A stretch of DNA of 64,000 nt from Chloroflexota bacterium (GCA_016875915.1 VGOM01000002.1:23263-87262), one strand, 5' to 3'; shown: positions 11,428 to 33,697, numbered from the stretch's first letter. Numbers and translations: made by a program. Notes: generated from the sequence alone by a model not told the origin.

Positions 11428-11450
11428 AACTCAATGCTCCTCGTTCTCTT

Positions 11451-12416
11451 CTAGACTCTCTTCTTCCTCAAGAGGGATGTCGGCATCGAGAAGCGGTACA
11501 GGTAGCCGACGGGGTCGTCTATCCCGTCCATGACCTTCCTGATGTCCTCTTCCTTCTCGGCATCGACGATGGCCGCCAGGGCGGACACGAACTTGGCCCC
11601 GGAGTCCTCTACCCCCTCCACGGGTCCGAAGCAGCCCCGGCAGGGAAGATTGATATTGAGGCAAGCCTCTCCGCAGCCTGAGCGGGTGGCCGGTCCCAGG
11701 CAGAGCACGCCCTGCACCAGGAAACAGGTGTTGGGCTCCGCCTCGATCTGGTGGATCCTCTTGACCTCCTTGATGGTGAAACGGCTGGGTTTGGTCTTGT
11801 TGCGCGGACAGGTGTCGCACAGGGCTTTGTGCGGCGTCAGTGTCGAGCCCTTGGGGGGCAGCTTGCCTTCAAGGACGGCAGTCACCGCATTCATGATCAG
11901 GTCAGGAGGCGGGGGGCATCCCGGCAGGTAGTAGTCCACGTCGACGGCATGCTTGAGCGCATACACCTCACCGAAGAACTCCGGAAGCGTCAACTCCCGG
12001 CCATTCGAGGTGCATTTGGTCTGTGGGCGGCTGCCCTTGGGATTGACCACCGTTGGGGCGTCCCGGTACACCCAGTTGAAGATGTCTTCCTTCGTGGTCA
12101 GATTGGCCAGTCCGGGCGTCCCTCCAAAACAGGCGCAGGCTCCGAAGGCCAGCACCAACTGGGACTTCTTCCGGAGCAATCTGGCCACCTCTTCGTGATC
12201 GGAGTTCCTCACATTGCCGTTGATGATGCTCAGTGCGATCTCGCCGTCCTTCATGGCCTCCACGTGGTGGTACTTGAAGTCCAACGCCACCGGCCAGAGG
12301 ACGAAATCGACGGCGTCCACGACCTTGAGGACGGCCTCATTGATGTCCACGACAGCTTCGTCACAGCCCCCGCAGCCACCCAGCCAACAGATCGCCACTT
12401 TTGGTTTGTCTGCCAT
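11451..12416 (-). CDS. mvhG: [NiFe]-hydrogenase small subunit, group 3c
   Basis: Proximal-cluster Cys pattern (WLGGCGGCDEA...GACACFGG...LPGCPP) and a cytoplasmic type without a Tat signal. Confidence 0.9.
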   Translation of the reverse strand: MADKPKVAICWLGGCGGCDEAVVDINEAVLKVVDAVDFVLWPVALDFKYHHVEAMKDGEIALSIINGNVRNSDHEEVARLLRKKSQLVLAFGACACFGGTPGLANLTTKEDIFNWVYRDAPTVVNPKGSRPQTKCTSNGRELTLPEFFGEVYALKHAVDVDYYLPGCPPPPDLIMNAVTAVLEGKLPPKGSTLTPHKALCDTCPRNKTKPSRFTIKEVKRIHQIEAEPNTCFLVQGVLCLGPATRSGCGEACLNINLPCRGCFGPVEGVEDSGAKFVSALAAIVDAEKEEDIRKVMDGIDDPVGYLYRFSMPTSLLRKKRV

Positions 12417-12436
12417 CTTCGCTCCCTTTCACCAGT

Positions 12437-12862
12437 CTAGACCGCAGAGGCCTTCTCTGCGTGTTCCTTGGCCTTCTTCACCGGGCCCAGCTTGGCCAGC
12501 CTGTCGCTCATCTCCTTCACAATGGCGGGGATGGTCTTCCCCTCCGGGTCGAGAGACAGTCTGATCTCCAGCCTCTCCTTCTCGATTCCGTAGGATTCCA
12601 GCACCCGGCGCAGCAGATAGACCCTCTTCTTCGCCTCGAAGTTGCCGTCCTGGTAGTGACAATCGCCTTCCGGGCAGCCCAGGATCAGCACACCATCGGC
12701 ACCATGCTGGAAGGCACTGAGTATGTGGGTGGATTCGATCTTGCCGCTGCAGATGATGGGAATCCAGTTCTTCACCTGACGCGCCAGCGAGACCTCGTCA
12801 GCCACATAGCCCCAGCTAAACCTACAGGAGAAGCAGACCAACTTGGGTTCGTAGTTCTTCAT
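12437..12862 (-). CDS. mvhD: methyl-viologen-reducing hydrogenase delta subunit (MvhD) family protein
   Basis: FSCRFSWGY...ILGCPEGDCHYQDGN is the MvhD [2Fe-2S] signature. Confidence 0.85.
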   Translation of the reverse strand: MKNYEPKLVCFSCRFSWGYVADEVSLARQVKNWIPIICSGKIESTHILSAFQHGADGVLILGCPEGDCHYQDGNFEAKKRVYLLRRVLESYGIEKERLEIRLSLDPEGKTIPAIVKEMSDRLAKLGPVKKAKEHAEKASAV

Positions 12863-12895
12863 TTCTTCTCTCCCTAAGCCTCCTCTGGAGTAACT

Positions 12896-14686
12896 CTAGA
12901 GCGCGGCGCATGCCTCGAAGATGCGCTCTTCGGTGTCATCATCGACCAGCTTCCTGGCGTGTGACGGACAGGCCACTACGCACATGCCGCAGGACTTGCA
13001 CCGGAACATGTCCGTCGTCGATACGGTCTTGCCCTCCACATCGGTCAGCCTGGCCGAATCGTAGTTGCAGACATAGACACACATGCCGCAGCCACTGCAC
13101 CTCTTCTCGTCAACAGCCACCGAATAGAGCGACTTCTCAAAGCCTATGGAGATGCAGGCCTTGCAGGAAACGCACGGGCCGCAGGTGATACACCTCTTGG
13201 CCTCCTCCCTGGCTTCCTGCAGGGTGAAACCCTTCTCGAACAATTGGAAATGCATCCTCTTCTCAGGGGGTATCCAGGCTACCTCGGCTTCGGGCTTGTA
13301 GTCCCTCCTCAAGGGAATGCCAAACCCTTCGTAGTCCCTCTTCCGCCCCTCCCTCATGTCCAGGCCCCTGAGGAACCTCTCTATCGATTCAGCGGCGACC
13401 AATCCCTCCTTCATGGCCTCTACCATGAAGCCGATCCTCCTCACGTCGCCGCCCACAAAGACATAGCCCTTTCTCAGGCTCTGCAGGGTGAAGGGGTCCA
13501 CCACCAGCCGGCCCCGTTCGTCCAGTAGCCCCTCCCTCTGCAGGAAGGCCTTGTCCGGCACCTGCCCCACGGTGATGACCAGCATGTCACCTTCCATGTC
13601 GGTGCAGTCGGCACAGTCAAACTGGGGATTGAAGCCCTTTTCATCGAACACGCTGGTGCATTTGGGGCAGATGATCTTCTTGAATCTGCCGTGCTCACCA
13701 ACGATCTTCTGCACGCCGCGTGAGTACGTTATCGGTATCCCCTCTTCCCACGCCCCGCGGATTTCCTCCTCATCGGCAGGGATGCCATCCTTGGTGCCTT
13801 TGTCCTCACTCTCCAGACAGATGATGCTCACATCTCCACCCAGCCTCCTGGCCGTCCTGGCCACATCGAAGGCCACGTTGCCACCTCCGATGACCACCAG
13901 CCTCTTGCCCTTGAAGTAGTCCGCGGTGATATTGCCATGACTGACCTCATAGAGAAGGGTGTGGCCGTACATCACCCCGGACAGATCCTGCCCTTCCACG
14001 ACCTCTCCGTCGAAGGTCAGCACCCGGGGGTACGGCGTCCCCTTGGCCAGGAAGACAGCCCTGTAGCCTTCGTTTCTCAGCCTCTCCATCGTCAGTCGGC
14101 CCTCACCGACCCTGGACCCGAACTTGACGTCTATCCCGGCGATCCGCACCAGGCTGTCCATGGTGGTGGTCAGGACATCCTCCGGCAGGCGGTAGTTCGG
14201 TATGAGCCAAAGCGCGCCTCCCAGCCGCTTGGACTCCTCGAATATGGTCACCCGGTAGCCCTTCCTGCTCAGGGCATAGGCACACATCAGTCCGCCCGGC
14301 CCGCCACCGATGATGGCGATGTTCTCCTTGTCCTTGACGATGCTCAGTTCCTCTTTCTGTTTCAGATGCGGAGTGTAGTGATCAGAGAGGAACCTCTTGA
14401 GCAGCCTCCGCCTGATCGCCCCACCCTTGTTCTTGTAGTTGCACTCCAGCTCGCACAGTCCGCAGATATAGCCGCAGACGTTGAAGAAGGGATTCTTCTC
14501 ATACAGATAGTCGCCAATCTGAATGACCTCGTTCTTGGCCTGCTCCAACTCCTCCGGCAGCAGCGAGATGAGCACATTCGTCCGCTGGATGTCCTCGTTG
14601 ATGGGGCACTTGATCTGGCACGGTGGCAGGAGCTGCTTCATGGCTTCCTCAACCCGGGCCACTCCCTTGCTTTCGGTCCTCCACAT
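12896..14686 (-). CDS. GltD/NfnB/SudA-like FAD- and NAD(P)-binding oxidoreductase fused to a C-terminal poly-ferredoxin
   Basis: An N-terminal 2x[4Fe-4S] Cys region typical of GltD; two Rossmann GGG motifs (IIGGGPGG, VVIGGGNVAFD); and a C-terminal triple CxxCxxCxxxCP ferredoxin. GGAGG RBS. It is the first gene of the mvhD-G-A operon. Confidence 0.75.
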   Translation of the reverse strand: MWRTESKGVARVEEAMKQLLPPCQIKCPINEDIQRTNVLISLLPEELEQAKNEVIQIGDYLYEKNPFFNVCGYICGLCELECNYKNKGGAIRRRLLKRFLSDHYTPHLKQKEELSIVKDKENIAIIGGGPGGLMCAYALSRKGYRVTIFEESKRLGGALWLIPNYRLPEDVLTTTMDSLVRIAGIDVKFGSRVGEGRLTMERLRNEGYRAVFLAKGTPYPRVLTFDGEVVEGQDLSGVMYGHTLLYEVSHGNITADYFKGKRLVVIGGGNVAFDVARTARRLGGDVSIICLESEDKGTKDGIPADEEEIRGAWEEGIPITYSRGVQKIVGEHGRFKKIICPKCTSVFDEKGFNPQFDCADCTDMEGDMLVITVGQVPDKAFLQREGLLDERGRLVVDPFTLQSLRKGYVFVGGDVRRIGFMVEAMKEGLVAAESIERFLRGLDMREGRKRDYEGFGIPLRRDYKPEAEVAWIPPEKRMHFQLFEKGFTLQEAREEAKRCITCGPCVSCKACISIGFEKSLYSVAVDEKRCSGCGMCVYVCNYDSARLTDVEGKTVSTTDMFRCKSCGMCVVACPSHARKLVDDDTEERIFEACAAL

Positions 14687-14788
14687 AGTCGACGCCTCCG
14701 TTTACATAAGAATACTGGTGGCTTCAGAGGGATGGTTTCGGTTCCACTGCCCCACCACCCCACCCTCGTCAGAGCCGCAAAAACGAAC

Positions 14789-14815
14789 GGGAGAGCCCCC
14801 GCTGCGGGCTCTCCC
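14789..14815 (-). promoter_or_regulatory. perfect 10-bp GC-rich stem-loop with a downstream U-run, in the leader/upstream region of the hydrogenase operon
   Basis: Minus-strand GGGAGAGCCC-gcagcgg-GGGCUCUCCC followed by GUUCGUUUUUGCGG, about 100 nt upstream of the ATG at 14686. This is terminator-like geometry in a 5' region. Confidence 0.35.
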
Positions 14816-14978
14816 TGAGTAGCTGCTGAGCGAATACCTTGATGGCACCGTGGAAATCCACCCTTTATTGTAGGGCAGTGGCCCGCACAATGCAAAACCA
14901 GTGTACTCGACCTCCGCATTTGACCGCGGGGTCGGCCCTCTTCAGTACTAGGTGCTCGCCCGGGGGACACGGTGTGCC

Positions 14979-15082: not shown

Positions 15083-15253
15083 ATGGAATGGCAGTTGATT
15101 GTAGCGCTGGTCATCATGATCCCGGTAATTCTTCTGCCGGTGGCCTTCGTGTGGTACCTCAACCTCGGGGGGATGCGCCTACTGCTTCGCGCCGTTCGGA
15201 GAGGCAAGGCGACCGACAAACAACGGGCGGTCGCCCCTGAGGAGGCAAGATAG
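15083..15253 (+). CDS. small single-pass membrane protein (56 aa), paralog A
   Basis: Hand translation: MEWQLIVALVIMIPVILLPVAFVWYLNLGGMRLLLRAVRRGKATDKQRAVAPEEAR. GGAGG RBS. About 80% nucleotide identity over the first ~90 nt to the ORF at 26692. Below the size cutoff of the ORF track. Confidence 0.6.
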   Translation: MEWQLIVALVIMIPVILLPVAFVWYLNLGGMRLLLRAVRRGKATDKQRAVAPEEAR

Positions 15254-15421: not shown

Positions 15422-16690
15422 GTGGGGCATATTGCCATGGTTAACGGCGCAGTAGCACCGTTCACAGGCGGCAACGAGGCTGAATGGGCCAGGTACCTCG
15501 AGAGGCTGCTCAAGACCGAGAGAGACCGCCTGATGTCGATCCTCAACTCCATGGAGGAGGGGGTCACCATCATCGGGCCGGACCACAAGATCCGGTTCAT
15601 GAACCCCAGCATGATGCGTCAGTTTGGTGACGGCACTGGCCTCCCCTGCTACAGACACCTCCGTGGCTACGATCAGCCCTGCCCCGACGTCTGCAGACTG
15701 CCGGAGGTGGTCAAGGGTGCTACGGAGCGATGGGAACACAGCTTTCCGGAAGGGGTGACCTACGAGGTGATCTCCTCCCCCTTTGCCGATACGGATCAGA
15801 CACCCTGCATGCTGTCAACGTTCAGGAATGTCACTCAGCAGAAGCAGATCCAGCTTGAGCTGATCAGGCTGAACCAGCTCAGATCAGAGGTCCTGGCCCA
15901 GATAACCAAGGACCTGGATCAGACCTCACATGAGGTGGTCCGCCTGCAGGAGGAGAAGCGCCGTTTCGTCCGCTTCCTGAGCGCCGTGGTACACGATCTC
16001 CGCGCTCCTCTGGCAGTCACTCAGAGCTGTCTGTGGACAATCCTGGAGGGCTACACCGGCGACGTCAACGACGAACAGAAGGACCTCCTGCAGAGGGGCA
16101 CCAGAAGGATCAATGACCTGATGGCACTTGTTGACGATCTGCTGGACATCCCCCGCATCGAATCGGGTCAACTGGTTCACGAGATGCAGGGCGTCTCCGT
16201 GAACGAAGTTGTCCGCCGGGCGCTCGATGGTCTGGACAGCCTGGCCGCAGAGAAGGGCATCAAGCTGGAGACGGCGCTGCCCGCCGTGACCCCCAGGGTC
16301 CATGGGTCAGCCCGGAGGCTGCAGCAGGTGGTCACCAATCTGGTGAACAACGCCATCGCCTACACCAACAAAGGGCAAGTGACGGTCAAGGTCTCTGAAG
16401 ACAACGGCAACGTCAAGGTTGAAGTCATGGACAGCGGCATCGGCATACCGGCGGACGATCTGTCGCGGCTCTTCGAGGATTTCTTCCGGGCCAGCAATGT
16501 GTCGGCCAAGGGTACCGGACTGGGACTGTCAATATCGAAGAGGATTGTCGAGGCCCATGGAGGCAGAATCTGGGTGGAGAGCCCGTGCCCCGAGACCAAG
16601 AAGGGCAGCAAGTTCAGCTTCACCCTGCCCAAGAGGACCGCGGTGCTGGCCGACGGAACAGCCAATGGGAATACTGGCAGACCTGCTTGA
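15422..16690 (+). CDS. cytoplasmic PAS-domain sensor histidine kinase with conserved 4-Cys PAS motif
   Basis: No TM helix. PAS domain with C-x10-C-x3-C...PCML; HisKA (AVVHDLRAPL) and HATPase_c (GTGLGLSISKRIVEAHGG). Paralog of the kinase at 23659. Confidence 0.85.
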   Translation: MGHIAMVNGAVAPFTGGNEAEWARYLERLLKTERDRLMSILNSMEEGVTIIGPDHKIRFMNPSMMRQFGDGTGLPCYRHLRGYDQPCPDVCRLPEVVKGATERWEHSFPEGVTYEVISSPFADTDQTPCMLSTFRNVTQQKQIQLELIRLNQLRSEVLAQITKDLDQTSHEVVRLQEEKRRFVRFLSAVVHDLRAPLAVTQSCLWTILEGYTGDVNDEQKDLLQRGTRRINDLMALVDDLLDIPRIESGQLVHEMQGVSVNEVVRRALDGLDSLAAEKGIKLETALPAVTPRVHGSARRLQQVVTNLVNNAIAYTNKGQVTVKVSEDNGNVKVEVMDSGIGIPADDLSRLFEDFFRASNVSAKGTGLGLSISKRIVEAHGGRIWVESPCPETKKGSKFSFTLPKRTAVLADGTANGNTGRPA

Positions 16691-16724
16691 GCCTGCCATA
16701 TAATTGTGAAGGAGGTAGGAGGCG

Positions 16725-17204
16725 ATGGAGAAGAAAGCCAAGATCCTGCTGATCGACGACGATCCCGACTTCGTGGAGGTAACCAGGAAGGTCCTGGAAA
16801 AGGGCGAGTCCTACCAGGTCGTCATTGCCGTCAACGGCAAGGAGGGCCTAGAGAAGGCCAAGAAGGAGAAGCCTGACCTCATCCTCCTGGACATCCTCAT
16901 GCCGGTGACAGATGGCTTCGGCTTCGCGGAACAGTTCAGCAAAGAGAGGTCACTGCGCAACATCCCCGTCCTGGCTCTGACCAGCTTCTCCACCTCTCTC
17001 GGGGAGCCATTTGCCTTTGACGTGGCGGAATTCATCAGGAAGCCCGTCGGCCCCCGAGACCTGATCGAGAGGGTGGAGAAGCACCTCAAACGAGCCGCAG
17101 AGAAGGCAGAGACGCGCGCTGTCAAGGTAAGCCCCAAGAGGCGTCCGGCCTCAGCCAAGCCCAGGCCGAAGGCCCCGGCCAGGACCAGCAAGCGTCCCAA
17201 GTAG
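16725..17204 (+). CDS. response regulator, receiver domain only, with a Lys/Pro/Ala-rich basic C-terminal tail
   Basis: CheY-like receiver (LLIDDDPDF...DLILLDILMP...) and then KVSPKRRPASAKPRPKAPARTSKRPK. Confidence 0.85.
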   Translation: MEKKAKILLIDDDPDFVEVTRKVLEKGESYQVVIAVNGKEGLEKAKKEKPDLILLDILMPVTDGFGFAEQFSKERSLRNIPVLALTSFSTSLGEPFAFDVAEFIRKPVGPRDLIERVEKHLKRAAEKAETRAVKVSPKRRPASAKPRPKAPARTSKRPK

Positions 17205-17275
17205 CCCTGCGGCTGCAGACCATTCCCGAGGCAGGCCAGATTGAGTCTTGACGGCAGAACGGATCAGGAAGAGAG

Positions 17276-18430
17276 GTGTCCACCATAGTCGTATCGCCTT
17301 TCAAGGAAGCCATCGATGCCGTTGTGGAGGCGGGGGGCAAGGCTCTGAAGCAGTGCTACCAGTGCGGCCTGTGCACCGGCACATGTCCGTGGAACCTGGT
17401 GAAGAGCTTCCCCACCCGCAAACTGATCCATCAGTCCCAGCTTGGCGCCGCCGACTTCGAGAGTGAGGATACCTGGACGTGCGCCACGTGCCGGGCATGC
17501 GTGGCCCGCTGCCCCAGGGGGGTGGCCATCATAGACATAATGAAGGCCCTCCGCGGAGTGATCGTGGGCATGGGGGCCGGCTATGTGCCGGACGGCCTGC
17601 GGGTGACCCTGAAGAACATCGCCGGAACGGGCAATCCTCTGGGCGAATCAGCGGAGAAGCGGACGGACTGGGCCAAGGACCTGGAGATCGCCCCTTTCAC
17701 CAGTGACACCGAGGTGCTCTACTTCTCCTGCTGCATCCCGGCCTACGACCCCAACATCAAGAGGGTGGCCAGGGCCACGGCGGCGATCCTCAAGAAGGCC
17801 GGGGTCAGCTTCGGTATGCTCGGCCCCCGGGAGAGCTGCTGCGGCGAGAGCGTGCGCAAGGCGGGAAACGAGAGCCTGTTCCAGACGCTGGCTCAGAGCA
17901 ACATCAGCGCCTTCGTGGAGAGAGGCGTGAAGAAGATCGTGGTCAGCTCTCCACACTGCTACCACACATTCAAGAATGAATACCCCGAGCTGGGCAGCAG
18001 CTTCGAGGTGACCCATCTCACCCAGTACCTTGCCGGACTGATCAGGGAGGAGCGGCTGAAGCCGAAGAAGGAACTGAACTTGAAGGTGACCTATCATGAT
18101 CCCTGCTACCTTGGGCGCCACAACAGCGTCTACGACGAACCCAGAGAGATCCTGACGAAGATCCCGGGGCTGGACCTCGTGGAGATGGCTGAGTGCCGAG
18201 AGAACAGCCTCTGCTGCGGAGGGGGCGGGAGCAGGATATGGCAGGAGACCAAGAAGGGCGAGAGGCTGTCCGATCTACGGCTGGACCAGGCGGTGGCCAC
18301 AGGGGCCAGCGTGCTGTCCACAGCCTGCCCCTACTGCATGCTCAACTTCGAGGACAGCATACTCACATCCAACAAGGGCGATATGATCAAGTTGAAGGAG
18401 ATCTCGGAACTGGTTCTGGAAGCCCTGTAG
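17276..18430 (+). CDS. heterodisulfide reductase subunit D-like protein (HdrC-like 2x[4Fe-4S] ferredoxin fused to an HdrB-like double CCG domain)
   Basis: CGLCTGTCP / CATCRACVARCP, then two CCG motifs (FSCCIPAYDP...CCGES and YHDPCYLGRHN...LCCGGGG). GTG start with an AGGAAGAGAGG RBS. Confidence 0.8.
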   Translation: MSTIVVSPFKEAIDAVVEAGGKALKQCYQCGLCTGTCPWNLVKSFPTRKLIHQSQLGAADFESEDTWTCATCRACVARCPRGVAIIDIMKALRGVIVGMGAGYVPDGLRVTLKNIAGTGNPLGESAEKRTDWAKDLEIAPFTSDTEVLYFSCCIPAYDPNIKRVARATAAILKKAGVSFGMLGPRESCCGESVRKAGNESLFQTLAQSNISAFVERGVKKIVVSSPHCYHTFKNEYPELGSSFEVTHLTQYLAGLIREERLKPKKELNLKVTYHDPCYLGRHNSVYDEPREILTKIPGLDLVEMAECRENSLCCGGGGSRIWQETKKGERLSDLRLDQAVATGASVLSTACPYCMLNFEDSILTSNKGDMIKLKEISELVLEAL

Positions 18431-18454
18431 CGAACGCGCAAGGAGATTCTGACC

Positions 18455-20452
18455 ATGGCCAGGATAGGCGTCTTCATCTGCCACTGCGGCACCAACATCG
18501 CCGGCACCGTCGACATCGGCCGTGTGGTTGAGGCAGCCGGTCAGATGCCTATGGTGGTCCACGCCGCCGACAACAAGTACAACTGCAGCGAACCGGGGCA
18601 AGCCCTGATCCGCGACGCCATCGCGGAGCACAGGCTGAGCCGGGTGGTCATCGCCGCCTGTTCGCCGCGGATGCACGAGAATACCTTCCGCAAGACCGTG
18701 GCTGCCGCGGGGCTGAACCCGTATCTGCTGGAGATGGCCAATCTGCGTGAGCACTGCAGCTGGGTCCACAGCGATGGGAAGGAAGCGGCCACCACCAAAG
18801 CCATCGAGCTGATCCGGATGGCCGTGTCCAAGGTGGCCCGCCACGAGAAGCTCTTCCCGAAGCAGGTGTCCCTCACCAAGCGGGCACTGGTCATTGGTGG
18901 GGGCATCTCGGGCATCCAGGCGGCCCTGGACATCGCCAATTCCGGCTACAAGGTGGTCCTGGTCGAGCGCGAGCCGACCATCGGCGGCCGCATGGCCCAA
19001 CTGGACAAGACATTCCCTACCCTGGACTGCTCCTCGTGCATCCTCACGCCCAAGATGGTGGATGTGGCCCAGCATGCCAACATCACCCTGCTGACCAGCG
19101 CGGAGGTGAAAGAGGTCAAGGGCTTCGTGGGCAATTTCGAGGTGAGCATTGTCCAGAAGGCCAGGAAGGTTGACCATGCCAAGTGCACCGGGTGCGGAAT
19201 ATGCTGGCAGAAATGCCCGGAGAAGGCCCCCTCGGAGTTCGACATGGGTCTGGGGAAGCGCTCCGCCATCTACATCCCCTTCCCGCAGGCGGTGCCGCCG
19301 AAGCCGGTGATTGACACCGCCAACTGCCGCTACCACAAACACCTGCGCTTCGTGGAGGAGAAGCGGGAGGGCAAGCCGCCACCCCAGTGCCGCGTCTGCG
19401 AGAAACTCTGCCCGGTGGGCGCCATTGACTGGGAGCAGAAGGACGAAGTCCTGACGGAGAAATTCGGAGCCATCATTGTGGCCACGGGCTACAAGGCCTT
19501 CGAGCCCGCGGTCTATGCAGAGCTGGGCTACGGCAAGCACCCCGACGTGATCACCGGACTGGAGATGGAGAGGATGATGAGCGCCTCCGGGCCAGCCGGC
19601 GGCGACGTGACCCGTCCCTCCAACGGCGAGCATCCCAGGGACGTGGTCTTCCTCACGTGCATTGGCTCCAGGGATGAACAGAGGGGCCGGACCTACTGCA
19701 GCAAGGTCTGCTGCATGTACATCGCCAAACACGCCATCATACTGAAGGAGCACTATCCGGACGTGCAGTGCTACGTCTTCTACATGGACGTCCGGGCAGT
19801 GAGCAAGGACTACGAGGAATTCTACAAGCGGGCCCAGGAGAGCGGCGCCATATACATCCGGGGCAAGGTGTCGGGAATACGGCAGGAGGATGGCCGGCTC
19901 GTCGTGCGGGGCGAGGACACGCTGCTGGGGGAGATGGTCGAGATCCCGGCCGATATGGTAGTGCTGGCCGTGGGCATGGAGCACAGTCCGGGATCGGCCG
20001 AGTTGGCCCAGGCCTTGAAGGTCAGCTATGACATCAACGAGCTGTTCATCGAGGCCCACCCCAAGCTGCGTCCCGTGGAGACGATGAGCGATGGGGTCTT
20101 TGTGGCCGGAGCCTGCGTGGGCCCCCGGGACATCCCTGAATCGGTAGCCAGCGGGAGCGCCGCCGCCGCCAAGGTGGCTGCCCTATTCAGCCAGGAATTC
20201 CTCACCACCGACCCCATGGTGGCCAGTGTGGACCAGATGAAATGCGGCGGCTGCCTGCTGTGCACCAAGGTCTGCCCCTTCAAGGCCATCGACACTCAGG
20301 TACTCCGGGATGGCCGGACCGTGGCCGTGGTCAACGAGAGCCTGTGCAAGGGCTGCGGCCTGTGTGTTGCCACCTGCCGGTTCGGTGCGGCCAACCTGCG
20401 CGGGTTCACGCAGCAGCAGCTGCTGGCTGAGGTGACATCTCTATGGCAATAG
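18455..20452 (+). CDS. hdrA: heterodisulfide reductase subunit A-like flavoprotein
   Basis: N-terminal GVFICHCGTNIAGTVD motif, FAD motif VIGGGISGIQAALD, an inserted ferredoxin and a C-terminal ferredoxin (CGGCLLCTKVCP...CKGCGLCVATC). Confidence 0.9.
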   Translation: MARIGVFICHCGTNIAGTVDIGRVVEAAGQMPMVVHAADNKYNCSEPGQALIRDAIAEHRLSRVVIAACSPRMHENTFRKTVAAAGLNPYLLEMANLREHCSWVHSDGKEAATTKAIELIRMAVSKVARHEKLFPKQVSLTKRALVIGGGISGIQAALDIANSGYKVVLVEREPTIGGRMAQLDKTFPTLDCSSCILTPKMVDVAQHANITLLTSAEVKEVKGFVGNFEVSIVQKARKVDHAKCTGCGICWQKCPEKAPSEFDMGLGKRSAIYIPFPQAVPPKPVIDTANCRYHKHLRFVEEKREGKPPPQCRVCEKLCPVGAIDWEQKDEVLTEKFGAIIVATGYKAFEPAVYAELGYGKHPDVITGLEMERMMSASGPAGGDVTRPSNGEHPRDVVFLTCIGSRDEQRGRTYCSKVCCMYIAKHAIILKEHYPDVQCYVFYMDVRAVSKDYEEFYKRAQESGAIYIRGKVSGIRQEDGRLVVRGEDTLLGEMVEIPADMVVLAVGMEHSPGSAELAQALKVSYDINELFIEAHPKLRPVETMSDGVFVAGACVGPRDIPESVASGSAAAAKVAALFSQEFLTTDPMVASVDQMKCGGCLLCTKVCPFKAIDTQVLRDGRTVAVVNESLCKGCGLCVATCRFGAANLRGFTQQQLLAEVTSLWQ

Positions 20453-20874
20453 ACTTCGAACCCAGGATTGTGGGCTTCCTCTGCAACTGGTGCAGCTACG
20501 CCGGGGCTGATATGGCCGGCACGGCACGGATCTGCTACCCCTCGAACATCCGCGTCATCAGGGTGCCCTGCTCGGCCAGGATCGACCCCCTCCTGGTGGT
20601 CAAGGCCTTTCAACTCGGCGCCGACGGCGTGCTGGTGGCGGGCTGCCACCCCGGCGACTGCCACTACACCGAAGGTAACTACTACTCCCGGCGCCGCTTC
20701 GCGCTGCTCTATCCCTTCCTGGAATACCTCGGCATCGAGAAAGGCCGGCTCCGACTGGAATGGGTGTCAGCCTCCGAAGGGAGGAAGTTCTCACATGTGG
20801 TGTCCTCCTTCACCGAGGGCCTGGTCAGCCTGGGCCCCCGGGAGAAGGTCCCGGCAGAAGGAGCGCTGCCATGA
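20443..20874 (+). CDS. MvhD/FlxD-like [2Fe-2S] protein
   Basis: FLCNWCSYAGADMAG...VAGCHPGDCHY. Overlaps the hdrA stop by 10 nt and the next gene by ATGA. Confidence 0.85.
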   Translation: MAIDFEPRIVGFLCNWCSYAGADMAGTARICYPSNIRVIRVPCSARIDPLLVVKAFQLGADGVLVAGCHPGDCHYTEGNYYSRRRFALLYPFLEYLGIEKGRLRLEWVSASEGRKFSHVVSSFTEGLVSLGPREKVPAEGALP

Positions 20875-21731
20875 GCCAGACAGCCCAGATCCGCCAAGCG
20901 GCCAGGGAACTGCTGCAGGGCAAGGCCGTGGAGTGCGTCATCGGCTATGAACGTGGCACCGATGGCGTGAACGCCAGGCCATTCTTCGCCTACGAGGCGG
21001 CGGAGGCCGACAGGCTGATCTTCGATCAAACCTGCACTCACGACCTGGCCAAGTATCTGCTCAACCGCAAGGGCAAGTCCACAGCCATAGTGGTCAAACC
21101 CTGCGATTCACGGGCCATCAACTTGCTCCTCAACGAGAGCCAGATTCAGCGGGACAAGCTCCACATCATTGGAGTGGTCTGCCCCGGCGTGGTGGAGAGG
21201 CGCTGGGGGACTCCCGGCGCCAAGCAGCTCAACGCCTGCCAGGTGTGCCAGCAGCATACGCCGGTGGTCTACGACACCCTGGTAGGCCAACCCGTCTCAG
21301 AGCCGGCGGTTGCCGACCCATACCCCGACGTCGCCGGGATGGAAGCCAAACCGGCCGACGAGAGACGAACCTTCTGGGAAGAGCAGTTCAGCCGGTGCCT
21401 GCGCTGCTATGCCTGCCGTCAGGCCTGCCCTGGCTGCTATTGCCCGGAGTGCTTCGCGGAGAGGCTGGACCCGCTGTGGGTGGGGATCAGGATCGCTCCG
21501 GGCGAGAACGAGGTCTGGAACACCATGCGGGCCTTCCATCTGGCCGGGCGGTGCATCGGCTGCTACCAGTGCGAGCAGGTCTGCCCTGTGAACATCCGAC
21601 TCAGTCTCCTCAACCGCAAGCTGGAGAAGGACGTCCTGGGTATGTTCCATTTCCAAGCGGGCATGGATGCCGAAAGCCCGCCGCCCTTCTCCACATATCA
21701 GAAGGACGAGAAGCTGGGGATAGGCGAATGA
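20871..21731 (+). CDS. iron-sulfur subunit (2x[4Fe-4S]; FrhB/FlxC-like)
   Basis: Start chosen at MSQTAQIRQ (ATGA overlap with the upstream gene). CLRCYACRQACPGCYCPEC and CIGCYQCEQVCP motifs. Confidence 0.65.
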   Translation: MSQTAQIRQAARELLQGKAVECVIGYERGTDGVNARPFFAYEAAEADRLIFDQTCTHDLAKYLLNRKGKSTAIVVKPCDSRAINLLLNESQIQRDKLHIIGVVCPGVVERRWGTPGAKQLNACQVCQQHTPVVYDTLVGQPVSEPAVADPYPDVAGMEAKPADERRTFWEEQFSRCLRCYACRQACPGCYCPECFAERLDPLWVGIRIAPGENEVWNTMRAFHLAGRCIGCYQCEQVCPVNIRLSLLNRKLEKDVLGMFHFQAGMDAESPPPFSTYQKDEKLGIGE

Positions 21732-22720
21732 GACAGTTCATCTCAAAGCAGAATCTGATCTCGTGGCTGCGCCAGCAGATGGAGGCTCGCCAGTTGGTGG
21801 CGCCAACGCAGGTAGATGACCTCATCCTCTTCAGGAGGATCGACCGTGTAGATGACGTCATCCTTCAGTTCCAGAACACCGCAACATCTCCCAAGGAATG
21901 GCTGTTCCCCAAGACCGAGACCCTGTTCCATGTGGAGCGAAAGGACGGAAAGGCGGAACTGATCCCCGCCGAGATCGACGGGGAAACCGTGATCTTCGGC
22001 CTTCGCCCATGCGATGCCAGGGGCATCACCATGCTGGACCTGCCCTACCTGGCGGACCCGGCTGACACCCTCTACCGTCAGCACCGCCAGAAGACCGTTC
22101 TGGTGGGCCTCTCCTGTCTGACGGCCTGCCCGGAGTGCTTCTGTGAAAGCATGGGCAGCGGACCAGAGGACACGGCGGCACTGGACATCATGTTTACCGA
22201 GGTCCGGGACGGCTACCTCGTTCAGGCGATCACAGAGAAGGGCAGGAGTCTCATGCCTCAGGCACTGCTGTCGCCTGCAGAGACGGTCAAGCCGCCAGCC
22301 CCCGAGACGGCCCCGGTGCCAAGTGAAGGCATCACGGCCAAGATGCGCCAAGCCTTCGACGGTCCCTATTGGGGAAGGGTGGCAGACAGATGCATCCACT
22401 GCAATGTCTGCGCCTATGTCTGCCCCACATGCTACTGCTTCGACGTCCGCGACTACACCAACAAGGGCAGCGTGGAGCGGGTGCGCAGCTGGGAGAGCTG
22501 TCAATCGCCGGGGTTCACCAAGATCGCCGGCGGCCATGACCCCCGGGCCAACAAGGGGGCCAGGATGAGACAGAGATTCAGCCACAAACTGCTCTACTTC
22601 CCGGAGCAGTTCGGTCCCCTGCATTGCGTCGGCTGCGGCCGATGCGTCAGGGCCTGCCCGGTGAACATCGACATCAGAGAGATCATGCAGGACGTACAGA
22701 GAATGGGGGCCCCCAAGTGA
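21728..22720 (+). CDS. iron-sulfur subunit, sulfhydrogenase-beta (HydB) / AsrA / FlxB-like
   Basis: Start at MRQFISKQ (ATGA overlap). CPECFCESMG, CIHCNVCAYVCPTCYC and CVGCGRCVRACP motifs. 330 aa, typical of HydB/AsrA. Confidence 0.7.
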   Translation: MRQFISKQNLISWLRQQMEARQLVAPTQVDDLILFRRIDRVDDVILQFQNTATSPKEWLFPKTETLFHVERKDGKAELIPAEIDGETVIFGLRPCDARGITMLDLPYLADPADTLYRQHRQKTVLVGLSCLTACPECFCESMGSGPEDTAALDIMFTEVRDGYLVQAITEKGRSLMPQALLSPAETVKPPAPETAPVPSEGITAKMRQAFDGPYWGRVADRCIHCNVCAYVCPTCYCFDVRDYTNKGSVERVRSWESCQSPGFTKIAGGHDPRANKGARMRQRFSHKLLYFPEQFGPLHCVGCGRCVRACPVNIDIREIMQDVQRMGAPK

Positions 22721-23550
22721 AGTCCGACAACCCCTTCGTGCCCCATATGGCCACGCTGCGGGAGGCAGTGGAGCTGACCCCCGACGTGATGCTCTTCAGG
22801 ATCGACCTCGACGACCCCGACCTCAAGCCCGACTTCAGCTACCAGCCCGGCCAGTTCGTCTTCGTATCCGCCTTCGGGACAGGTGAGTCTCCCTTCGGAT
22901 TGACCTCAGTGTCGTACCGCCGCGGGCCGCTGGAAGTAGCCGTGAGAAAGGTGGGCACGGTGACCGGTTCGCTGCACGAACTGGAGGCCGGGGCCTCCGT
23001 GGGCGTGAGGGGTCCGTTCGGCAATCACTTCCCCCTGGATGATTTCAGAGGGAAGAACATCCACATCATCGGAGGCGGCATCGGTTTCGCACCGCTGCGG
23101 CCGGTGATCCTGACCATCCTGGACCACAGGTCGGACTACGAGGACCTGCTCATCCTCAACGGGGCCCGTACTCCACAGGACCTGGTCTTCGCCAGCGAGT
23201 TCGACACCTGGGCGGCATCGCCGAGGACGAGGCTGGAACTCACCGTTGATGCCGGTGACAAGAGCTGGACGGGCCGGGTGGCCCTGATCCCTTCGGTGGT
23301 CAGGGAGCTGAACCTCTCGCCGCAGAACTCCGTGGCCGTGATCTGCGGTCCGCCGATCATGATCCATTTCACCCTGATTGAACTGAAGAAGCTGGGCTTC
23401 GCCGACCATCAGATCGTGACCACCCTGGAAGGAAAGATGAAGTGCGGCCTGGGCAAGTGCGCCCGCTGCAATGTCGGCGACAAGTACGTCTGCAAAGACG
23501 GTCCCGTCTTCACCCTGGAGCAGATCTCCACGCTCCTGGAGCAGTTCTGA
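22717..23550 (+). CDS. FAD/NAD(P)-binding oxidoreductase with C-terminal [2Fe-2S] (HydG/AsrB/PyrK/FlxA-like)
   Basis: FNR-like fold (RLFSI-type FAD region GQFVFV; NAD(P) motif IGGGIGFAPLRP) and C-terminal CGLGKCARCNVG...C. GTG start in a GTGA overlap with the upstream stop; an ATG at 22747 is the alternative. Confidence 0.8.
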   Translation: MKSDNPFVPHMATLREAVELTPDVMLFRIDLDDPDLKPDFSYQPGQFVFVSAFGTGESPFGLTSVSYRRGPLEVAVRKVGTVTGSLHELEAGASVGVRGPFGNHFPLDDFRGKNIHIIGGGIGFAPLRPVILTILDHRSDYEDLLILNGARTPQDLVFASEFDTWAASPRTRLELTVDAGDKSWTGRVALIPSVVRELNLSPQNSVAVICGPPIMIHFTLIELKKLGFADHQIVTTLEGKMKCGLGKCARCNVGDKYVCKDGPVFTLEQISTLLEQF

Positions 23551-23658
23551 GCATCGTTGGAGACAGCCCTACTCATCGCCACATCCCCCCTCAGACCAGT
23601 CCGCACCCGATGGCTGCCGGCACGATGGACAGACCGATTTCCGGTGTGAGAATATAGG

Positions 23659-24960
23659 ATGTACGAAGATCCTTCAGATTCCGGAGACAACCGGAGAATG
23701 CTTCGTGCGCATGGCCCTCATCTGGTCCTGGTGCTCCTGGCGACTGGGGCACTGCTCTGGCATTCGCCCGGCTCAGTCGGCCTCCCGGCAGCGGGCGTCT
23801 TCGGATTCGCCGGGCTGACCGTCCTTCTGGCCATGGTCAGCAGCGTCCTCGGTCCTTTCGCCGGAGGCAACGAGGCGGAATGGACCGTGTACCTGGAGAA
23901 GGCCCTCAAGGCAGAGAGGGACAGGCTGATGGCCATGCTCAACACCATGGAGGAAGGGGTGGCCATCATCGGCCCGGACCACCGGATCCGCTTCATGAAT
24001 CCCAGCATGGTCAGGGACTTCGGCCACGGCATTGGCGCGCTGTGCCACCGGCATCTCTACGGCTTCGACGAGCCGTGCAACGAGGTGTGCAAGCTCCCAC
24101 AGGTGATCAGGGGCTCCACGGAGAGGTGGGACTACACCTTCGCCGACGGCCGGACCTACGACATGATCGCCGCACCGTTCGCCGACTCCGACGAGAGTCC
24201 CTGCATGCTGGCCACCTACAGGAACGTCACCCGGCAGAAGCAGGTTGAGCTGGAGCTAATCAAGCTCAACCGCCTCAAGTCCGAGCTTCTGTCCAACGTG
24301 TCACACGAACTCAAGTCACCGCTGACCTCCATCAAGGGGATCATCAGCAGCCTGCTGCAGGAGGACATCAGATGGGACGATGCCACCGGCAAGATGCTGC
24401 TGGCCGGAATAAGCGAGGAATCGGACCGGTTGGCCAGCCTGGTGACCAACCTGCTGAACATGAGCAAGCTCGAGGCGGGGGTGTGGAATCCCGAGAAGGA
24501 GGCCTGCGACATATCGGAGATCATTCGTGAGACCCTGGAACGCCAGAAGTGGGTCCACAAGAGCCACACGTTCGAGGCCAACGTCGCCCCGGACCTGCCG
24601 GAGATCTCTGCGGACTCCAACCAGATCAAGCAGGTCCTGATCAATCTGCTGGAAAATGCCGCGGCCTACTCTGAAGAAGGCACCAGGATCGTAGTGGCGG
24701 CCAGGGCGGACGGCAGAGAGATCGAGGTGTCGGTGTCCGACCAAGGCATCGGCATGCCGGCGGAGGAACTGGAGAAGGCCTTTGAGAAGTTCTACCGCGG
24801 CAGCCAGAAGCGCCGCCGCCCCGGAGGCACCGGACTGGGCCTGGCCATCTGCAAATCCATTGTCATGGCTCACGGTGGGCGGATCTGGGCCGAGAGCCAA
24901 CTTGGCAGAGGAAGCACCTTCCGCTTCACCCTGCCCCCAGGCGAGCAGGCCAAGCACTAG
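23659..24960 (+). CDS. membrane-anchored PAS sensor histidine kinase (paralog of the 15422 kinase; same 4-Cys PAS motif)
   Basis: Two N-terminal TM segments; the PAS core has ~60% identity to the kinase at 15422, including C-x10-C-x3-C...PCML. HisKA and HATPase_c domains. The start codon is uncertain (23659 or 23698). Confidence 0.85.
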   Translation: MYEDPSDSGDNRRMLRAHGPHLVLVLLATGALLWHSPGSVGLPAAGVFGFAGLTVLLAMVSSVLGPFAGGNEAEWTVYLEKALKAERDRLMAMLNTMEEGVAIIGPDHRIRFMNPSMVRDFGHGIGALCHRHLYGFDEPCNEVCKLPQVIRGSTERWDYTFADGRTYDMIAAPFADSDESPCMLATYRNVTRQKQVELELIKLNRLKSELLSNVSHELKSPLTSIKGIISSLLQEDIRWDDATGKMLLAGISEESDRLASLVTNLLNMSKLEAGVWNPEKEACDISEIIRETLERQKWVHKSHTFEANVAPDLPEISADSNQIKQVLINLLENAAAYSEEGTRIVVAARADGREIEVSVSDQGIGMPAEELEKAFEKFYRGSQKRRRPGGTGLGLAICKSIVMAHGGRIWAESQLGRGSTFRFTLPPGEQAKH

Positions 24961-24974
24961 AGACTGAAAGCGCG

Positions 24975-25664
<690 letters not shown>

Positions 25665-25688: not shown

Positions 25689-26354
25689 TCACGGGATATC
25701 CTCCAGGGTGACCCAGCCCTCCTTCAGCGCCCTGACCACCGCCTCGGTCCGGGAACTGACCTGCAGTTTGTTGAAGATGTGCCCCAGGTGCCCCTGCACC
25801 GTCCTGATGCTCAGACAGAGATCTCTGGCGATATCGGCGTTACTGAGACCGTGGGTGGCCATCCTGAGTATCTCCTTCTCCCGGTCGCTGAGCACCTCCG
25901 CGGACTTGGCCGGCGACGCCTTTGCACCGCCGGCCACGAAGCGATTGAGCACCTTCTTGGCCACCGCCGGATGCAGCACTGACTCGCCGCCGTGCACCGC
26001 ACGCACCGCGTCTATGAACTCGCGGCTGCGTACGCTCTTGAGCAGATACCCGGCAGCCCCGGCCTCCAGCAGACTGAAGACGAACTGATCATCGTCATAG
26101 GCGGACAGTATCAGGATGGTCACCGAAGGGCAGCGGGCCTTGATCTGTCTGGTCGCCTCTATGCCGTCCAGCTTCGGCATCGATATGTCCACGATGGCAA
26201 CATCGGGCCTGGTCTCGTCCGCCAGTTTGACCGCCTCTTCCCCATCAGCAGCCTCACCCACCACCTCCATATCCCCCTCTTGTTCCAGCATCCTCCTGGT
26301 CCCTTCCCTCACCACAGCATGATCATCCGCTATCAGCACACGTATCTTGCCCAC
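25689..26354 (-). CDS. NarL/LuxR-family response regulator (paralog of 37223-37888)
   Basis: Receiver plus LuxR helix-turn-helix (ILRMATHGLSNADIARDL). The ORF track extends it to 26399. The preferred start is the GTG at ~26354, which has a GGAGAGG RBS and an extended -10 TGCTATAAT 26 nt upstream. Confidence 0.85.
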   Translation of the reverse strand: MGKIRVLIADDHAVVREGTRRMLEQEGDMEVVGEAADGEEAVKLADETRPDVAIVDISMPKLDGIEATRQIKARCPSVTILILSAYDDDQFVFSLLEAGAAGYLLKSVRSREFIDAVRAVHGGESVLHPAVAKKVLNRFVAGGAKASPAKSAEVLSDREKEILRMATHGLSNADIARDLCLSIRTVQGHLGHIFNKLQVSSRTEAVVRALKEGWVTLEDIP

Positions 26355-26377
26355 GTTGCCTCTCCTCTGCCTAGGGC

Positions 26378-26388
26378 GGATTATAGCA
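26378..26388 (-). promoter_or_regulatory. extended -10 promoter element TGCTATAAT for the LuxR-type regulator
   Basis: The minus strand reads TGCTATAATC. The identical element sits at the same spacing upstream of the paralogous gene at 37911-37921. Confidence 0.45.
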
Positions 26389-26429
26389 TCGCGCCTCACC
26401 GCCCCCCAGAGGGGAACTACCCGATGCAG

Positions 26430-26691: not shown

Positions 26692-26874
26692 ATGGACTGG
26701 GAGTTCATTGTAGCGCTGGTGGTGGCCATTCCCATCGTTCTTCTGCCCGTGGCGTTCGTGTGGTACCTCAATATCGGCGGCATCTACGCAACCATACGAG
26801 CTGCGCGGCGCAGGAGGGCGGCACGCCGCGAAAGGGAGGCCGCGTCCACTAGACAGGGACAAGGAGGAGCCTGA
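26692..26874 (+). CDS. small single-pass membrane protein (60 aa), paralog B
   Basis: MDWEFIVALVVAIPIVLLPVAFVWYLNIGG..., then an Arg-rich tail. GGAAGGAGGAG RBS. Its stop overlaps the next start (TGATG). Confidence 0.6.
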   Translation: MDWEFIVALVVAIPIVLLPVAFVWYLNIGGIYATIRAARRRRAARREREAASTRQGQGGA

Positions 26875-27293
26875 TGGCGGACAGGAAGATTGAACAGATC
26901 CGGGAGATTGTCAGTGGAATCGCTGAACCCGACGAAATCGCGGAAGTGGACAGAGTCGTCGGTGAAGCCAAAGGCAGAATCCTGATGGAGTCGAAGCGGG
27001 GGTTCTGGGCCGGCAAGACCCCGTGCTGGGAAATGGTCCGTTGCCCGGAGGCCATCAAGAACGACTGCCCGGCATCAAAAGGCCACTCAGTGGCCTGCTG
27101 GGAGATCGCAGGGACCTACTGCAAGCTGCCTTCGGGACACGACACCAGTATCTGTGAGGTATGCCGGGTGTACAAGAGGTGGGGCGATGGAGAGGTCATC
27201 GCCATCAAGCTCGATACCACAGGGACCACAGGCAGCGCAGCGGCTGAGACCCGCACAAAGGCGGCTTCAGCCAAGGCAAAGGGCGGGAAGTAA
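26874..27293 (+). CDS. cysteine-rich protein of unknown function (8 Cys, two CWE(M/I) motifs)
   Basis: Cysteine array: ...CWEMVRCPEAIKNDCPASKGHSVACWEIAGTYCKLPSGHDTSICEVCRVY... Translationally coupled to the upstream small membrane protein, with an A/K-rich C-terminal tail. Confidence 0.55.
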   Translation: MADRKIEQIREIVSGIAEPDEIAEVDRVVGEAKGRILMESKRGFWAGKTPCWEMVRCPEAIKNDCPASKGHSVACWEIAGTYCKLPSGHDTSICEVCRVYKRWGDGEVIAIKLDTTGTTGSAAAETRTKAASAKAKGGK

Positions 27294-27385: not shown

Positions 27386-27410
27386 CGGGCGGCGAAGCCC
27401 CCGTTTCTTT
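27386..27410 (+). terminator. putative intrinsic terminator after the Cys-rich protein gene
   Basis: GC-rich hairpin CGGGCGGC-gaa-GCCCCCG followed by UUUCUUU, ~95 nt after the stop. Confidence 0.35.
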
Positions 27411-27462
27411 GGATAAGGGATCTGGTTCCGCGGCTCGTGCGGCACCGCTTAGGAGGCAAGGG

Positions 27463-27975
27463 ATGACCAAGGCCGAACTAGAATCACTGGTGAAGAGAGA
27501 GGCTGGCACAGGGTACGCCCCCCGCATCTTCAGGGACATCCAGAAGGTCATTGAAGACACCGGAGGGCGGTCGGGGGCATTGATCAGAGTCCTGCAGCAA
27601 GCCCAGGGACTGGTGGGGTATCTGCCGCCGCCGGTGCTCATGACCATCTCCAGGGACCTGAACATACCTCTCAGCGAAGTGAACGGCATAGTCAGTTTCT
27701 ACAGCTTCTTCACCACCGTTCCCCGCGGGAAGTATGTCGTTCAGGTGTGCCTGGGTACATGCTGCTACGTCAGAGGCGGGCAGAGGATCCTGGATGTCCT
27801 GAAGAAGGAGTACGGGCTTGAACCCGGCGATACGTCGCCTGACGGACTGCTGTCCGTGGACACCATCCGCTGTCTGGGGGCCTGCGCCCTGGCCCCGGTG
27901 GTTACTCTGGACGGACAGGTGCACAGAAGGGTGAAGGCCACCGGTGTGAAAGAACTAGTCAGCCACTGCAAATAG
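27463..27975 (+). CDS. hoxE: NuoE-like [2Fe-2S] thioredoxin-fold diaphorase subunit (HoxE/HndA-like)
   Basis: CLGTCC...C...C motif of NuoE/24-kDa-subunit type. Start at MTKAELESL, with an AGGAGG RBS. Confidence 0.85.
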   Translation: MTKAELESLVKREAGTGYAPRIFRDIQKVIEDTGGRSGALIRVLQQAQGLVGYLPPPVLMTISRDLNIPLSEVNGIVSFYSFFTTVPRGKYVVQVCLGTCCYVRGGQRILDVLKKEYGLEPGDTSPDGLLSVDTIRCLGACALAPVVTLDGQVHRRVKATGVKELVSHCK

Positions 27976-27985
27976 GGGGTTAGCC

Positions 27986-31141: not shown

Positions 31142-31144
31142 GAG

Positions 31145-33124: not shown

Positions 33125-33134
33125 GAGGTATAAC

Positions 33135-33671: not shown

Positions 33672-33697
33672 ATGTGCAGAGTTGTGGAGGCATTCAA

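Follow-up and report, generated by a model that had tools for sequence, protein, structure and literature searches.

Two paralogous histidine kinases in a redox gene island

We analyzed a stretch of 64,000 nucleotides (nt) from an uncultured, Dehalococcoidia-like member of the Chloroflexota (GCA_016875915.1, VGOM01000002.1:23263-87262; this whole stretch is called the window). The subject of the analysis was a pair of paralogous sensor histidine kinases, HK1 and HK2, whose PAS domains share four cysteines. The window has a G+C content of ~62%. The initial annotation had placed the kinases among hydrogenase and Hdr clusters, and Pfam searches bore this out: the flanking genes form three clusters, one of a [NiFe] hydrogenase and MvhD, one of Hdr-like genes and one of NuoEF-hydrogenase genes. 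These are the candidate target operons 1 to 3 of Table 1, which lists the coordinates of all features.

Table 1. Positions of the kinases, their partner regulators and the neighboring genes, counted from the first letter of the window (aa, amino acids; ORF, open reading frame; TM, transmembrane)
Feature	Coordinates	Strand	Basis
Candidate target operon 1, whole	9964-14686	(-)	Pfam
[NiFe] hydrogenase large subunit (operon 1)	9964-11427	(-)	Pfam
[NiFe] hydrogenase small subunit (operon 1)	11451-12416	(-)	Pfam
MvhD (operon 1)	12437-12862	(-)	Pfam
GltD/HdrA-like flavoprotein (operon 1)	12896-14686	(-)	Pfam
Small single-TM ORF, 56 aa (MEWQLIVAL...WYLNLGG)	15083-15253	(+)	Conserved block in window/L001 intergenic alignment; tblastn orthologues
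HK1, soluble histidine kinase, 422 aa	15422-16690	(+)	ORF; Pfam HisKA 6.5e-11, HATPase_c 2e-32
HK1 sensor module, residues 15-150 (GGNEAEW motif, N-cap helix, PAS core)	15464-15871	(+)	
HK1 codon C76	15647-15649	(+)	
HK1 codon C87	15680-15682	(+)	
HK1 codon C91	15692-15694	(+)	
HK1 codon C129	15806-15808	(+)	
RR1, single-domain receiver, 159 aa	16725-17204	(+)	Pfam Response_reg 4.4e-21, no other domain
Candidate target operon 2: HdrD-like CCG protein, HdrA, MvhD, two Fe-S proteins, FAD/NAD/[2Fe-2S] reductase	17276-23550	(+)	Pfam
HK2, membrane-anchored paralogue, 433 aa	23659-24960	(+)	ORF; Pfam HisKA, HATPase_c; hydropathy
HK2 sensor module, residues 68-203	23860-24267	(+)	
HK2 codon C129	24043-24045	(+)	
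HK2 codon C140	24076-24078	(+)	
HK2 codon C144	24088-24090	(+)	
HK2 codon C182	24202-24204	(+)	
RR2, OmpR-type response regulator	24975-25664	(+)	Pfam Response_reg + Trans_reg_C
RR3, NarL-type response regulator (REC + GerE), no adjacent kinase	25689-26399	(-)	Pfam
Candidate target operon 3: NuoE, NuoF-GltD fusion, NuoG/molybdopterin-like subunit, second [NiFe] hydrogenase small and large subunits	27409-35128	(+)	Pfam

Both kinase ORFs were found as first annotated, and the hydropathy profiles agreed that HK1 is soluble and HK2 is anchored in the membrane. In HK1, an N-cap helix is followed by the four-cysteine PAS domain, a long coiled-coil linker, HisKA (H191, codon 15992-15994, in the H-box SAVVHDLRAPL) and HATPase_c. 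The protein has no hydrophobic N-terminus, and its ORF could not be extended upstream because it begins at the first start codon past a stop. In HK2, two N-terminal hydrophobic segments (about residues 22-66) precede the four-cysteine PAS domain, HisKA (H216, in the H-box SNVSHELKSPL) and HATPase_c. Both are class-I (HisKA) kinases that match PF00512 and PF02518, with weak Pfam matches to PAS, and the PAS domain is the sole sensor module of each.

The two kinases are 43% identical over about 400 aa (BLASTP, E 3e-121). For the PAS core an identity of ~60% had been claimed; we measured 65% for the PAS segment (89/136) and 63% for the beta core (57/91). The linker from PAS to the H-box in HK1 has an insertion of 28 residues relative to HK2.

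More distant HK1-type orthologues, such as protein P0002, keep a two-TM anchor; the TM region of P0002 ends with MMGPFTGGNEAEW. This anchor is absent from HK1 of the window and of the related loci L001 and L002 (15422-15470 was compared with P0002, with the region at about 5791 in L005 and with L008), and the junction motif PF.GGNEAEW is kept in the anchor-less HK1. Judging from these sequence comparisons, the soluble form of HK1 looks like a secondary loss of the anchor.

Partner regulators

The partner of HK1 had been described as a CheY-like receiver with a histone-like basic tail. The receiver was confirmed, and its catalytic residues can be read in the sequence of RR1. A tail rich in Lys, Arg and Pro is indeed present at the C-terminus (about nt 17088-17201), but it is not a feature of the system: it occurs only in the window and in the closest relative (L002), while the five orthologues in L005, L006, L008, L009 and L010 stop right after the receiver. 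The tail therefore appears to be a lineage-specific, recent addition lying outside the conserved system. A phosphate sink and a protein-protein effector are possible roles of RR1. In L002, an extra single-domain receiver gene (128 aa, 2612-2998, (+) strand) separates the GltD-like gene from the small TM ORF that precedes HK1; it has no counterpart in the intergenic region of the window.

The assignment of an OmpR-type partner to HK2 was correct, as RR2 combines a receiver with Trans_reg_C. RR2 stays adjacent to HK2 in L003-L008 and is likely the DNA-binding transcriptional output of this kinase. A NarL-type regulator is often found near the HK2-RR2 pair; RR3 is co-conserved with it in L003, L005, L006 and L007.

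Conservation of the four cysteines

The cysteines common to both kinases are C76, C87, C91 and C129 of HK1, which correspond to C129, C140, C144 and C182 of HK2 (below, Cys1 to Cys4). Their spacing is C-x10-C-x3-C-x37-C(ML). No other cysteines are shared; each kinase has two further ones that are not common to both.

A word-based search with the HK1 sensor returned six close relatives, and the motif was kept in them wherever the region was present. A scan of a genome collection with the 6-sequence alignment gave ten loci, all from metagenome-assembled genomes of Chloroflexota/Dehalococcoidia, several of which had both paralogues. The exact spacing was observed in 15 of the 15 PAS copies from these loci, at 41-87% identity to the window kinases. 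A profile search then yielded 63 proteins, of which 61 were aligned (32-87% identity). The only invariant positions of this alignment were G55, C62 (Cys1) and C77 (Cys3); C73 (Cys2) and C115 (Cys4) were conserved at ≥90%.

The initial annotation had described the same pattern, C-x10-C-x3-C...C(ML), in both kinases, and it had made the proposal depend on conservation of the cysteines in orthologues. We found them conserved in the 15 copies and, among the best-conserved columns, in the 61 homologues. The adjacent histidine fared differently: both window kinases have it, but Tyr replaces it at this position (Cys1+3) in 2 of the 15 copies and prevails there in the wider family, and the histidine does not define the motif.

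Predicted structure of the sensor domain

An AlphaFold2 model built from the 61-sequence alignment had a mean pLDDT (predicted local distance difference test) of 93.1 and a pTM (predicted template modeling score) of 0.80. The model is a canonical PAS fold, in which a five-stranded antiparallel sheet (A, B, G, H, I) has the C-F helices in between. An N-cap helix (3-29) precedes strands A (33-37), B (42-46), G (88-93), H (99-108) and I (114-122), and a helix forms the C-terminus; short helices occupy residues 48-54, 62-65 and 79-83. Cys1 (model residue 62) opens the D-alpha helix, Cys2 (73) and Cys3 (77) are in the loop just ahead of the 79-83 helix, and strand I-beta has Cys4 (115) as its second residue. 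The loop with Cys2 and Cys3 (71-80) is the block of lowest pLDDT (82), and in the model it might be a loop whose order depends on a cofactor.

The best structural matches include the cofactor-binding PAS domains of LOV, FixL and DosP. Sequence searches of the PDB, with the single domain as well as with the profile, gave non-significant matches only (LOV, E 0.3; WalK, the top match, E 0.25), and no relative with a solved structure emerged.

Gene neighborhoods in related genomes

Orthologues of HK1-RR1 adjoin the operon of GltD, MvhD and the [NiFe] small and large subunits in 7 of the 10 related loci. The orientation varies: the pair is divergent from the operon in the window, L001 and L002, and it is co-directional with the operon and downstream of it in L005, L006, L008, L009 and L010. 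This synteny survives the rearrangement, down to 54% identity. HK2-RR2 is located either after the Hdr-like cluster (window, L003 and L007) or back-to-back with HK1-RR1 (L005, L006 and L008). The gene order of operon 2 is unchanged in L002, L003 and L007.

The four-cysteine PAS domain also occurs without a kinase. Proteins of ~238 aa, made of a membrane domain and the four-cysteine PAS domain, are encoded directly upstream of HdrC-HdrB-HdrA-MvhD in L011-L015 and beside molybdopterin oxidoreductases in L016 and L017; in each of L011-L017 a NarL-type two-component system is found next to the gene. The proposed association with hydrogenase/Hdr genes is thus kept across genomes and across two protein architectures. 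The tie of the four-cysteine PAS domain to anaerobic redox-enzyme operons in both architectures is good, though indirect, evidence for a redox-related regulatory role.

The kinase-less proteins include P0174, P0180, P0197 and about 40 similar ones (for example, the product of L011 6001-6717). A conserved multi-TM domain (FYYFGEL.DWAAW ... HD[IV]HRLLFL.PI.YA.Y ... FLPRAFFISP.PDPLLRM) is followed by the four-cysteine PAS domain and a stop, with no output domain. The membrane domain matched no Pfam family; the search gave only a weak match to DUF4118 (E 0.02).

In L011, as well as in L013 and L014, the genes of HdrA (L011 8981-10942) and MvhD (L011 10939-11358) were called split at an in-frame TGA, in the contexts TLDCSA*ILTPKM (HdrA) and VLVCG*HPGECHY (MvhD). 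The TGA sites align with cysteines in the window HdrA TLDCSSCILTPKM and MvhD2 VLVAGCHPGDCHY, and these genes probably encode selenocysteine forms.

A large family of Cys-triad PAS domains

An exhaustive HMMER search of 1.84 billion representative sequences produced 10,522 matches with E<=1e-3, 4,006 with E<=1e-10 and 112 with E<=1e-30. In the 150 best proteins, with 320 matched stretches, we tallied about 300 complete PAS domains. Of these domains, 295 had Cys1, 291 had Cys2 and 275 had Cys3. The Cys4 column had Cys in 25 domains only and otherwise L, S, M, A or V. With respect to spacing, the triad had the form C-x10-C-x2-C in 246 domains and the x3 form, that of both window kinases, in 24. 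For the D-F helix region, the triad can be written as G-x-x-C-[YHF]-x-x-x(7)-P-C-x(2,3)-C, a pattern that HK1 and HK2 match. Thus, Cys1-3 characterize a very large PAS family as a whole and are not special to these kinases, and Cys4 marks the subclade to which the window kinases belong.

Long proteins with multiple PAS domains are frequent in the family, and the matched stretches number up to 5-6 in one protein. The names in the sources are only of the type "PAS domain(-containing)/S-box", and Pfam sees generic PAS_4, PAS_8 and PAS. A cluster look-up of ten family members returned generic names and one taxon label (Chloroflexota). The main text of a 2023 survey of PAS cofactor families mentions nine NreB-like iron-sulfur (Fe-S) PAS domains only and describes no Cys-triad family (PMC10468136).

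The wider family has the consensus C-Y-E-Y at Cys1. An acidic residue at Cys1+2 was present in 154 of 234 three-Cys domains, compared to 7 of 25 four-Cys domains (Fisher p=3.5e-4, kinship ignored); in both window kinases this residue is Arg. The pattern fits a role of the acidic residue and of Cys4 as alternative fourth ligands.

Comparison with known sensors

The initial annotation had likened the kinases to NreB. The Staphylococcus NreB has a [4Fe-4S] cluster, while the three-Cys NreB of Bacillus licheniformis has a [2Fe-2S] cluster and is an Fe-S sensor with a triad and a variable ligand (PMC13478379). In the 1.52 Å structure of the B. licheniformis NreB-PAS, C63, C66 and C78 hold the [2Fe-2S] cluster, and C78 is positioned directly before helix alpha2 (79-82) (PMC13478379). 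In our alignment of retrieved NreB sequences the cysteines were in columns 58, 61, 73 and 76 (C-x2-C-x11-C-x2-C).

Several traits are common to NreB and to HK1/HK2. The kinase senses through a cytoplasmic PAS domain alone, the clustered cysteines are between strand B-beta and the short helix ahead of G-beta, the last of them (C78 in NreB, Cys3 here) directly precedes this helix, and 15 residues separate the outer cysteines (C62-C77 or C63-C78 in NreB, Cys1-Cys3 here). On the other hand, the order of the spacers is reversed (C-x2-C-x11-C(-x2-C) in NreB, C-x10-C-x3-C...C here), and the fourth Cys is on I-beta, 38 residues downstream. NreB uses HisKA_3 (PF07730) and the NarL-type NreC, whereas HisKA is combined here with a receiver-only or an OmpR-type partner. 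A comparison of the four-Cys clade with NreB-PAS profiles by hhalign was not significant (probability 1.3%, E 0.041). Therefore, what is left of the analogy is the comparable helical region of the cysteines; motif order, profile match, kinase class and partner all differ, and we rejected the assignment of HK1 and HK2 to the NreB type.

The closest motif in the searchable literature is that of OrpR. This sigma54 activator of Desulfovibrio vulgaris has a PAS domain with a redox-sensitive [4Fe-4S] cluster bound via C52-x8-C61-x3-C65, and the conserved Asp/Glu54 (Cys1+2) was proposed as the fourth ligand (PMC8359166). By the published motif, the order of the triad is the same as here (C-x8-C-x3-C compared to C-x10-C-x3-C), and the acidic residue at Cys1+2 is the consensus of the wider family described above. 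OrpR serves a strict anaerobe as a sensor of redox potential. It differs in being a one-component enhancer-binding protein with three Cys and a first spacing two residues shorter; here we have kinases with four Cys.

Two other kinds of sensor were compared. In the HoxJ/HupT-HoxBC systems, H2 is sensed indirectly via a regulatory hydrogenase. HoxJ/HupT resemble HK1 and HK2 as PAS-bearing two-component kinases dedicated to the control of [NiFe] hydrogenase genes; the difference is that neither a regulatory hydrogenase nor a Cys motif of comparable kind is implied here. The thiol-switch kinases ArcB and RegB respond to redox conditions through Cys located within or close to a cytoplasmic PAS domain or linker (reviewed in PMC8063818). 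They have one or two Cys, intermolecular disulfides and a quinone response, with no clustered triad or tetrad.

Interpretation and alternatives

The reading that we favor, at a confidence close to even, is that the cysteines ligate a metal center in the PAS pocket, most probably Fe-S, whose state would control kinase activity and, through it, the flanking redox operons. Domain architecture, PAS fold, conservation of the cysteines, family context and conserved gene neighborhood are shown; that a metal is bound, which metal it is, what is sensed and which operons are controlled we infer. The three cysteines of the D/E/F-helix region (C-x10-C-x3-C), together with the clade-specific Cys4 at the start of I-beta, would hold the center in the cofactor pocket. 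A change in the state of the cluster (oxidation or reduction, conversion, loss, or ligand exchange) would shift the PAS domain relative to the N-cap helix and the C-terminal coiled coil, and this shift would alter the balance of kinase and phosphatase activities. Phosphoryl groups would then pass to the OmpR-type RR2 and to the receiver-only RR1, which would serve as a sink or give an output through protein contacts. Finally, RR2, possibly with RR3, would tune the transcription of the [NiFe]/MvhD/GltD, Hdr-like and NuoEF-hydrogenase operons to the redox state of the cell. Three invariant Cys with a variable fourth ligand are typical of Fe-S sensors such as NsrR and IscR.

Several observations weigh against this reading. 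The PAS domains have no significant sequence relation to NreB-PAS. The anticorrelation between Cys4 and the acidic residue comes mainly from one clade, and its statistic ignores kinship. Tandem copies of the triad PAS domain suit structural Zn at least as well as they suit multiple Fe-S clusters. With respect to regulation, RR1 lacks an output domain in most orthologues, and a neighborhood alone is no proof of regulation. A repeat scan of the region upstream of HK1 gave short two-copy matches only, which we judged to be due to chance, and it established no operator motif.

A rather unlikely, though serious, alternative is that the cysteines bind Zn or another single metal ion in a structural or regulatory site that stabilizes the D/E/F-helix region, with a small ligand or a protein partner as the signal. 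Arrangements of three or four Cys that include a short C-x2/3-C element are common Zn sites, and the repetition of the triad PAS domain up to 5-6 times per protein would be easier with a structural metal. However, structural Zn sites normally keep four protein ligands, and the variation of the fourth one here (L, S, M, C or A at Cys4; E, D, R, K or Q at Cys1+2) would be unusual for them. A precedent exists in WalK, the top match of the PDB search albeit a non-significant one: Zn regulation through the cytoplasmic PAS domain is known there, with His271 as a named ligand (10.1101/405365). The strict tie to Fe-S-rich redox operons suggests a redox signal instead. Moreover, the Zn ligands of WalK are reportedly residues other than Cys, not equivalent to the cysteines here.

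We consider a metal-free switch improbable. In this case the cysteines would form disulfides or persulfides and would report on the redox state of cytoplasmic thiols, perhaps of the thiol/disulfide substrate of the Hdr-like enzymes. The recurrent Hdr-like neighbors would make a disulfide signal physiologically sensible, and ArcB and RegB are kinase precedents with switches in PAS or the linker; still, three or four clustered, near-invariant Cys exceed what a disulfide switch needs, and the family-wide triad with a variable fourth position resembles a metal site. In addition, kinase-less members also adjoin molybdopterin oxidoreductases without Hdr.

The chances are very slim that HK2-RR2, and HK1 as well, are ordinary PhoR/PnpS/WalK-like housekeeping kinases, for which the location would be incidental and the cysteines a quirk of the lineage. 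The best NCBIfam matches of HK2 were indeed PnpS (238 bits), WalK (206.8) and PhoR (200.7, along the whole model), RR2 matched models of the KdpE/PhoB type, and the layout TM-TM-PAS-HisKA of HK2, with no periplasmic domain, is PhoR-like. Yet all these matches are well under the curated cut-offs (400 bits for PnpS, 725 for WalK and 334 for PhoR, with 325 bits as the fourth cut-off), and the scores of HK1 were lower. On the basis of these cut-offs and of the gene context we rejected PhoR, PnpS or WalK equivalog identity. The persistence of the hydrogenase-operon synteny through rearrangement, the recurrence of the same PAS domain, without a kinase, beside Hdr and molybdoenzyme operons, and the place of the cysteines among the most conserved columns also speak against housekeeping kinases.

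If the favored Fe-S reading is extended to the whole family, C-x10-C-x2/3-C PAS domains would be a very large, unrecognized family of Fe-S sensors, often present in several copies per protein and spanning thousands of 50%-identity cluster representatives. The fourth ligand would be exchangeable (Glu/Asp at Cys1+2, an exogenous ligand, or the I-beta Cys in the Dehalococcoidia clade). In Dehalococcoidia, the four-Cys clade, fused to a kinase or in a kinase-less membrane protein, would be dedicated to the redox control of operons for electron-bifurcating hydrogenase/Hdr and for other anaerobic redox enzymes. We offer this extension tentatively, as a possibility that is somewhat on the doubtful side.

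Other features of the locus

The small TM ORF at 15083-15253 has a strong ribosome-binding site (AAGGAGG), and HK1 starts about 170 nt downstream of it. The ORF may be co-transcribed with HK1 and could belong to the kinase system. A second copy in the window is at 26692-26874 (+). Similar ORFs were found in L001 (3514-3681), L002 (3292-3456), L007 (5373-5525), L008 (37-132 and 235-390), L011 (5142-5327, 7288-7473 and 11620-11802) and L013 (5172-5357, 7353-7538 and 11797-11988). They encode proteins of about 56-63 aa with one TM helix and a basic tail, with the consensus MEWQ[IL][IV]VAL..[IV]P[VL][IL]L[IL]P.[AV]F[VI]WYLN[IVL]GG. With several per locus, they are situated directly upstream of HK1, the two-CW-like ORF described next, the kinase-less four-Cys PAS genes and the Hdr clusters. 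They matched no Pfam or NCBIfam family; their products could work with the sensors as small membrane proteins, or they could be upstream ORFs that lead the operons.

A Cys-rich ORF (139 aa, 26874-27293, (+) strand) with two CW motifs (CWEMVRCP ... CWEIAGTYC) follows the second small TM ORF and precedes the NuoE/NuoF operon; it is oriented divergently to the NarL-type regulator. Its match to the NCBIfam model two_CW_domain (E 9e-4, 19.6 bits) was under the cut-off of 35.

In the leader of operon 1 (14786-14896, (-) strand), a sigma70-like promoter match at 14896-14867 is followed by a strong terminator-like hairpin with a T-run (14815-14789, a stem of 10 bp with 8 GC pairs), downstream of which is the start codon at 14686. 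The hairpin in this GltD-MvhD-[NiFe] leader may be an attenuator. An Rfam search of 8-32 kb of the window, which includes this leader, gave no match, and the leader region is poorly kept in L001.

Biological significance

PAS domains that sense metals or Fe-S clusters are already known from NreB and OrpR. What is new here is the different arrangement of the cysteines, the very large unannotated PAS family, the clade-specific Cys4 on I-beta, and the conserved association with hydrogenase/Hdr genes in Dehalococcoidia. These organisms are abundant in anoxic sediments and aquifers, and to our knowledge the regulation of electron-bifurcating hydrogenase/Hdr complexes in their uncultured members is essentially undescribed. 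A conserved sensor beside the hydrogenase/Hdr operons is a concrete candidate for such a regulator. If the triad binds Fe-S, metal-cluster sensing would be much more widespread among PAS domains than is now thought, and the proposed family of triad Fe-S sensors would be far larger than the NreB group.

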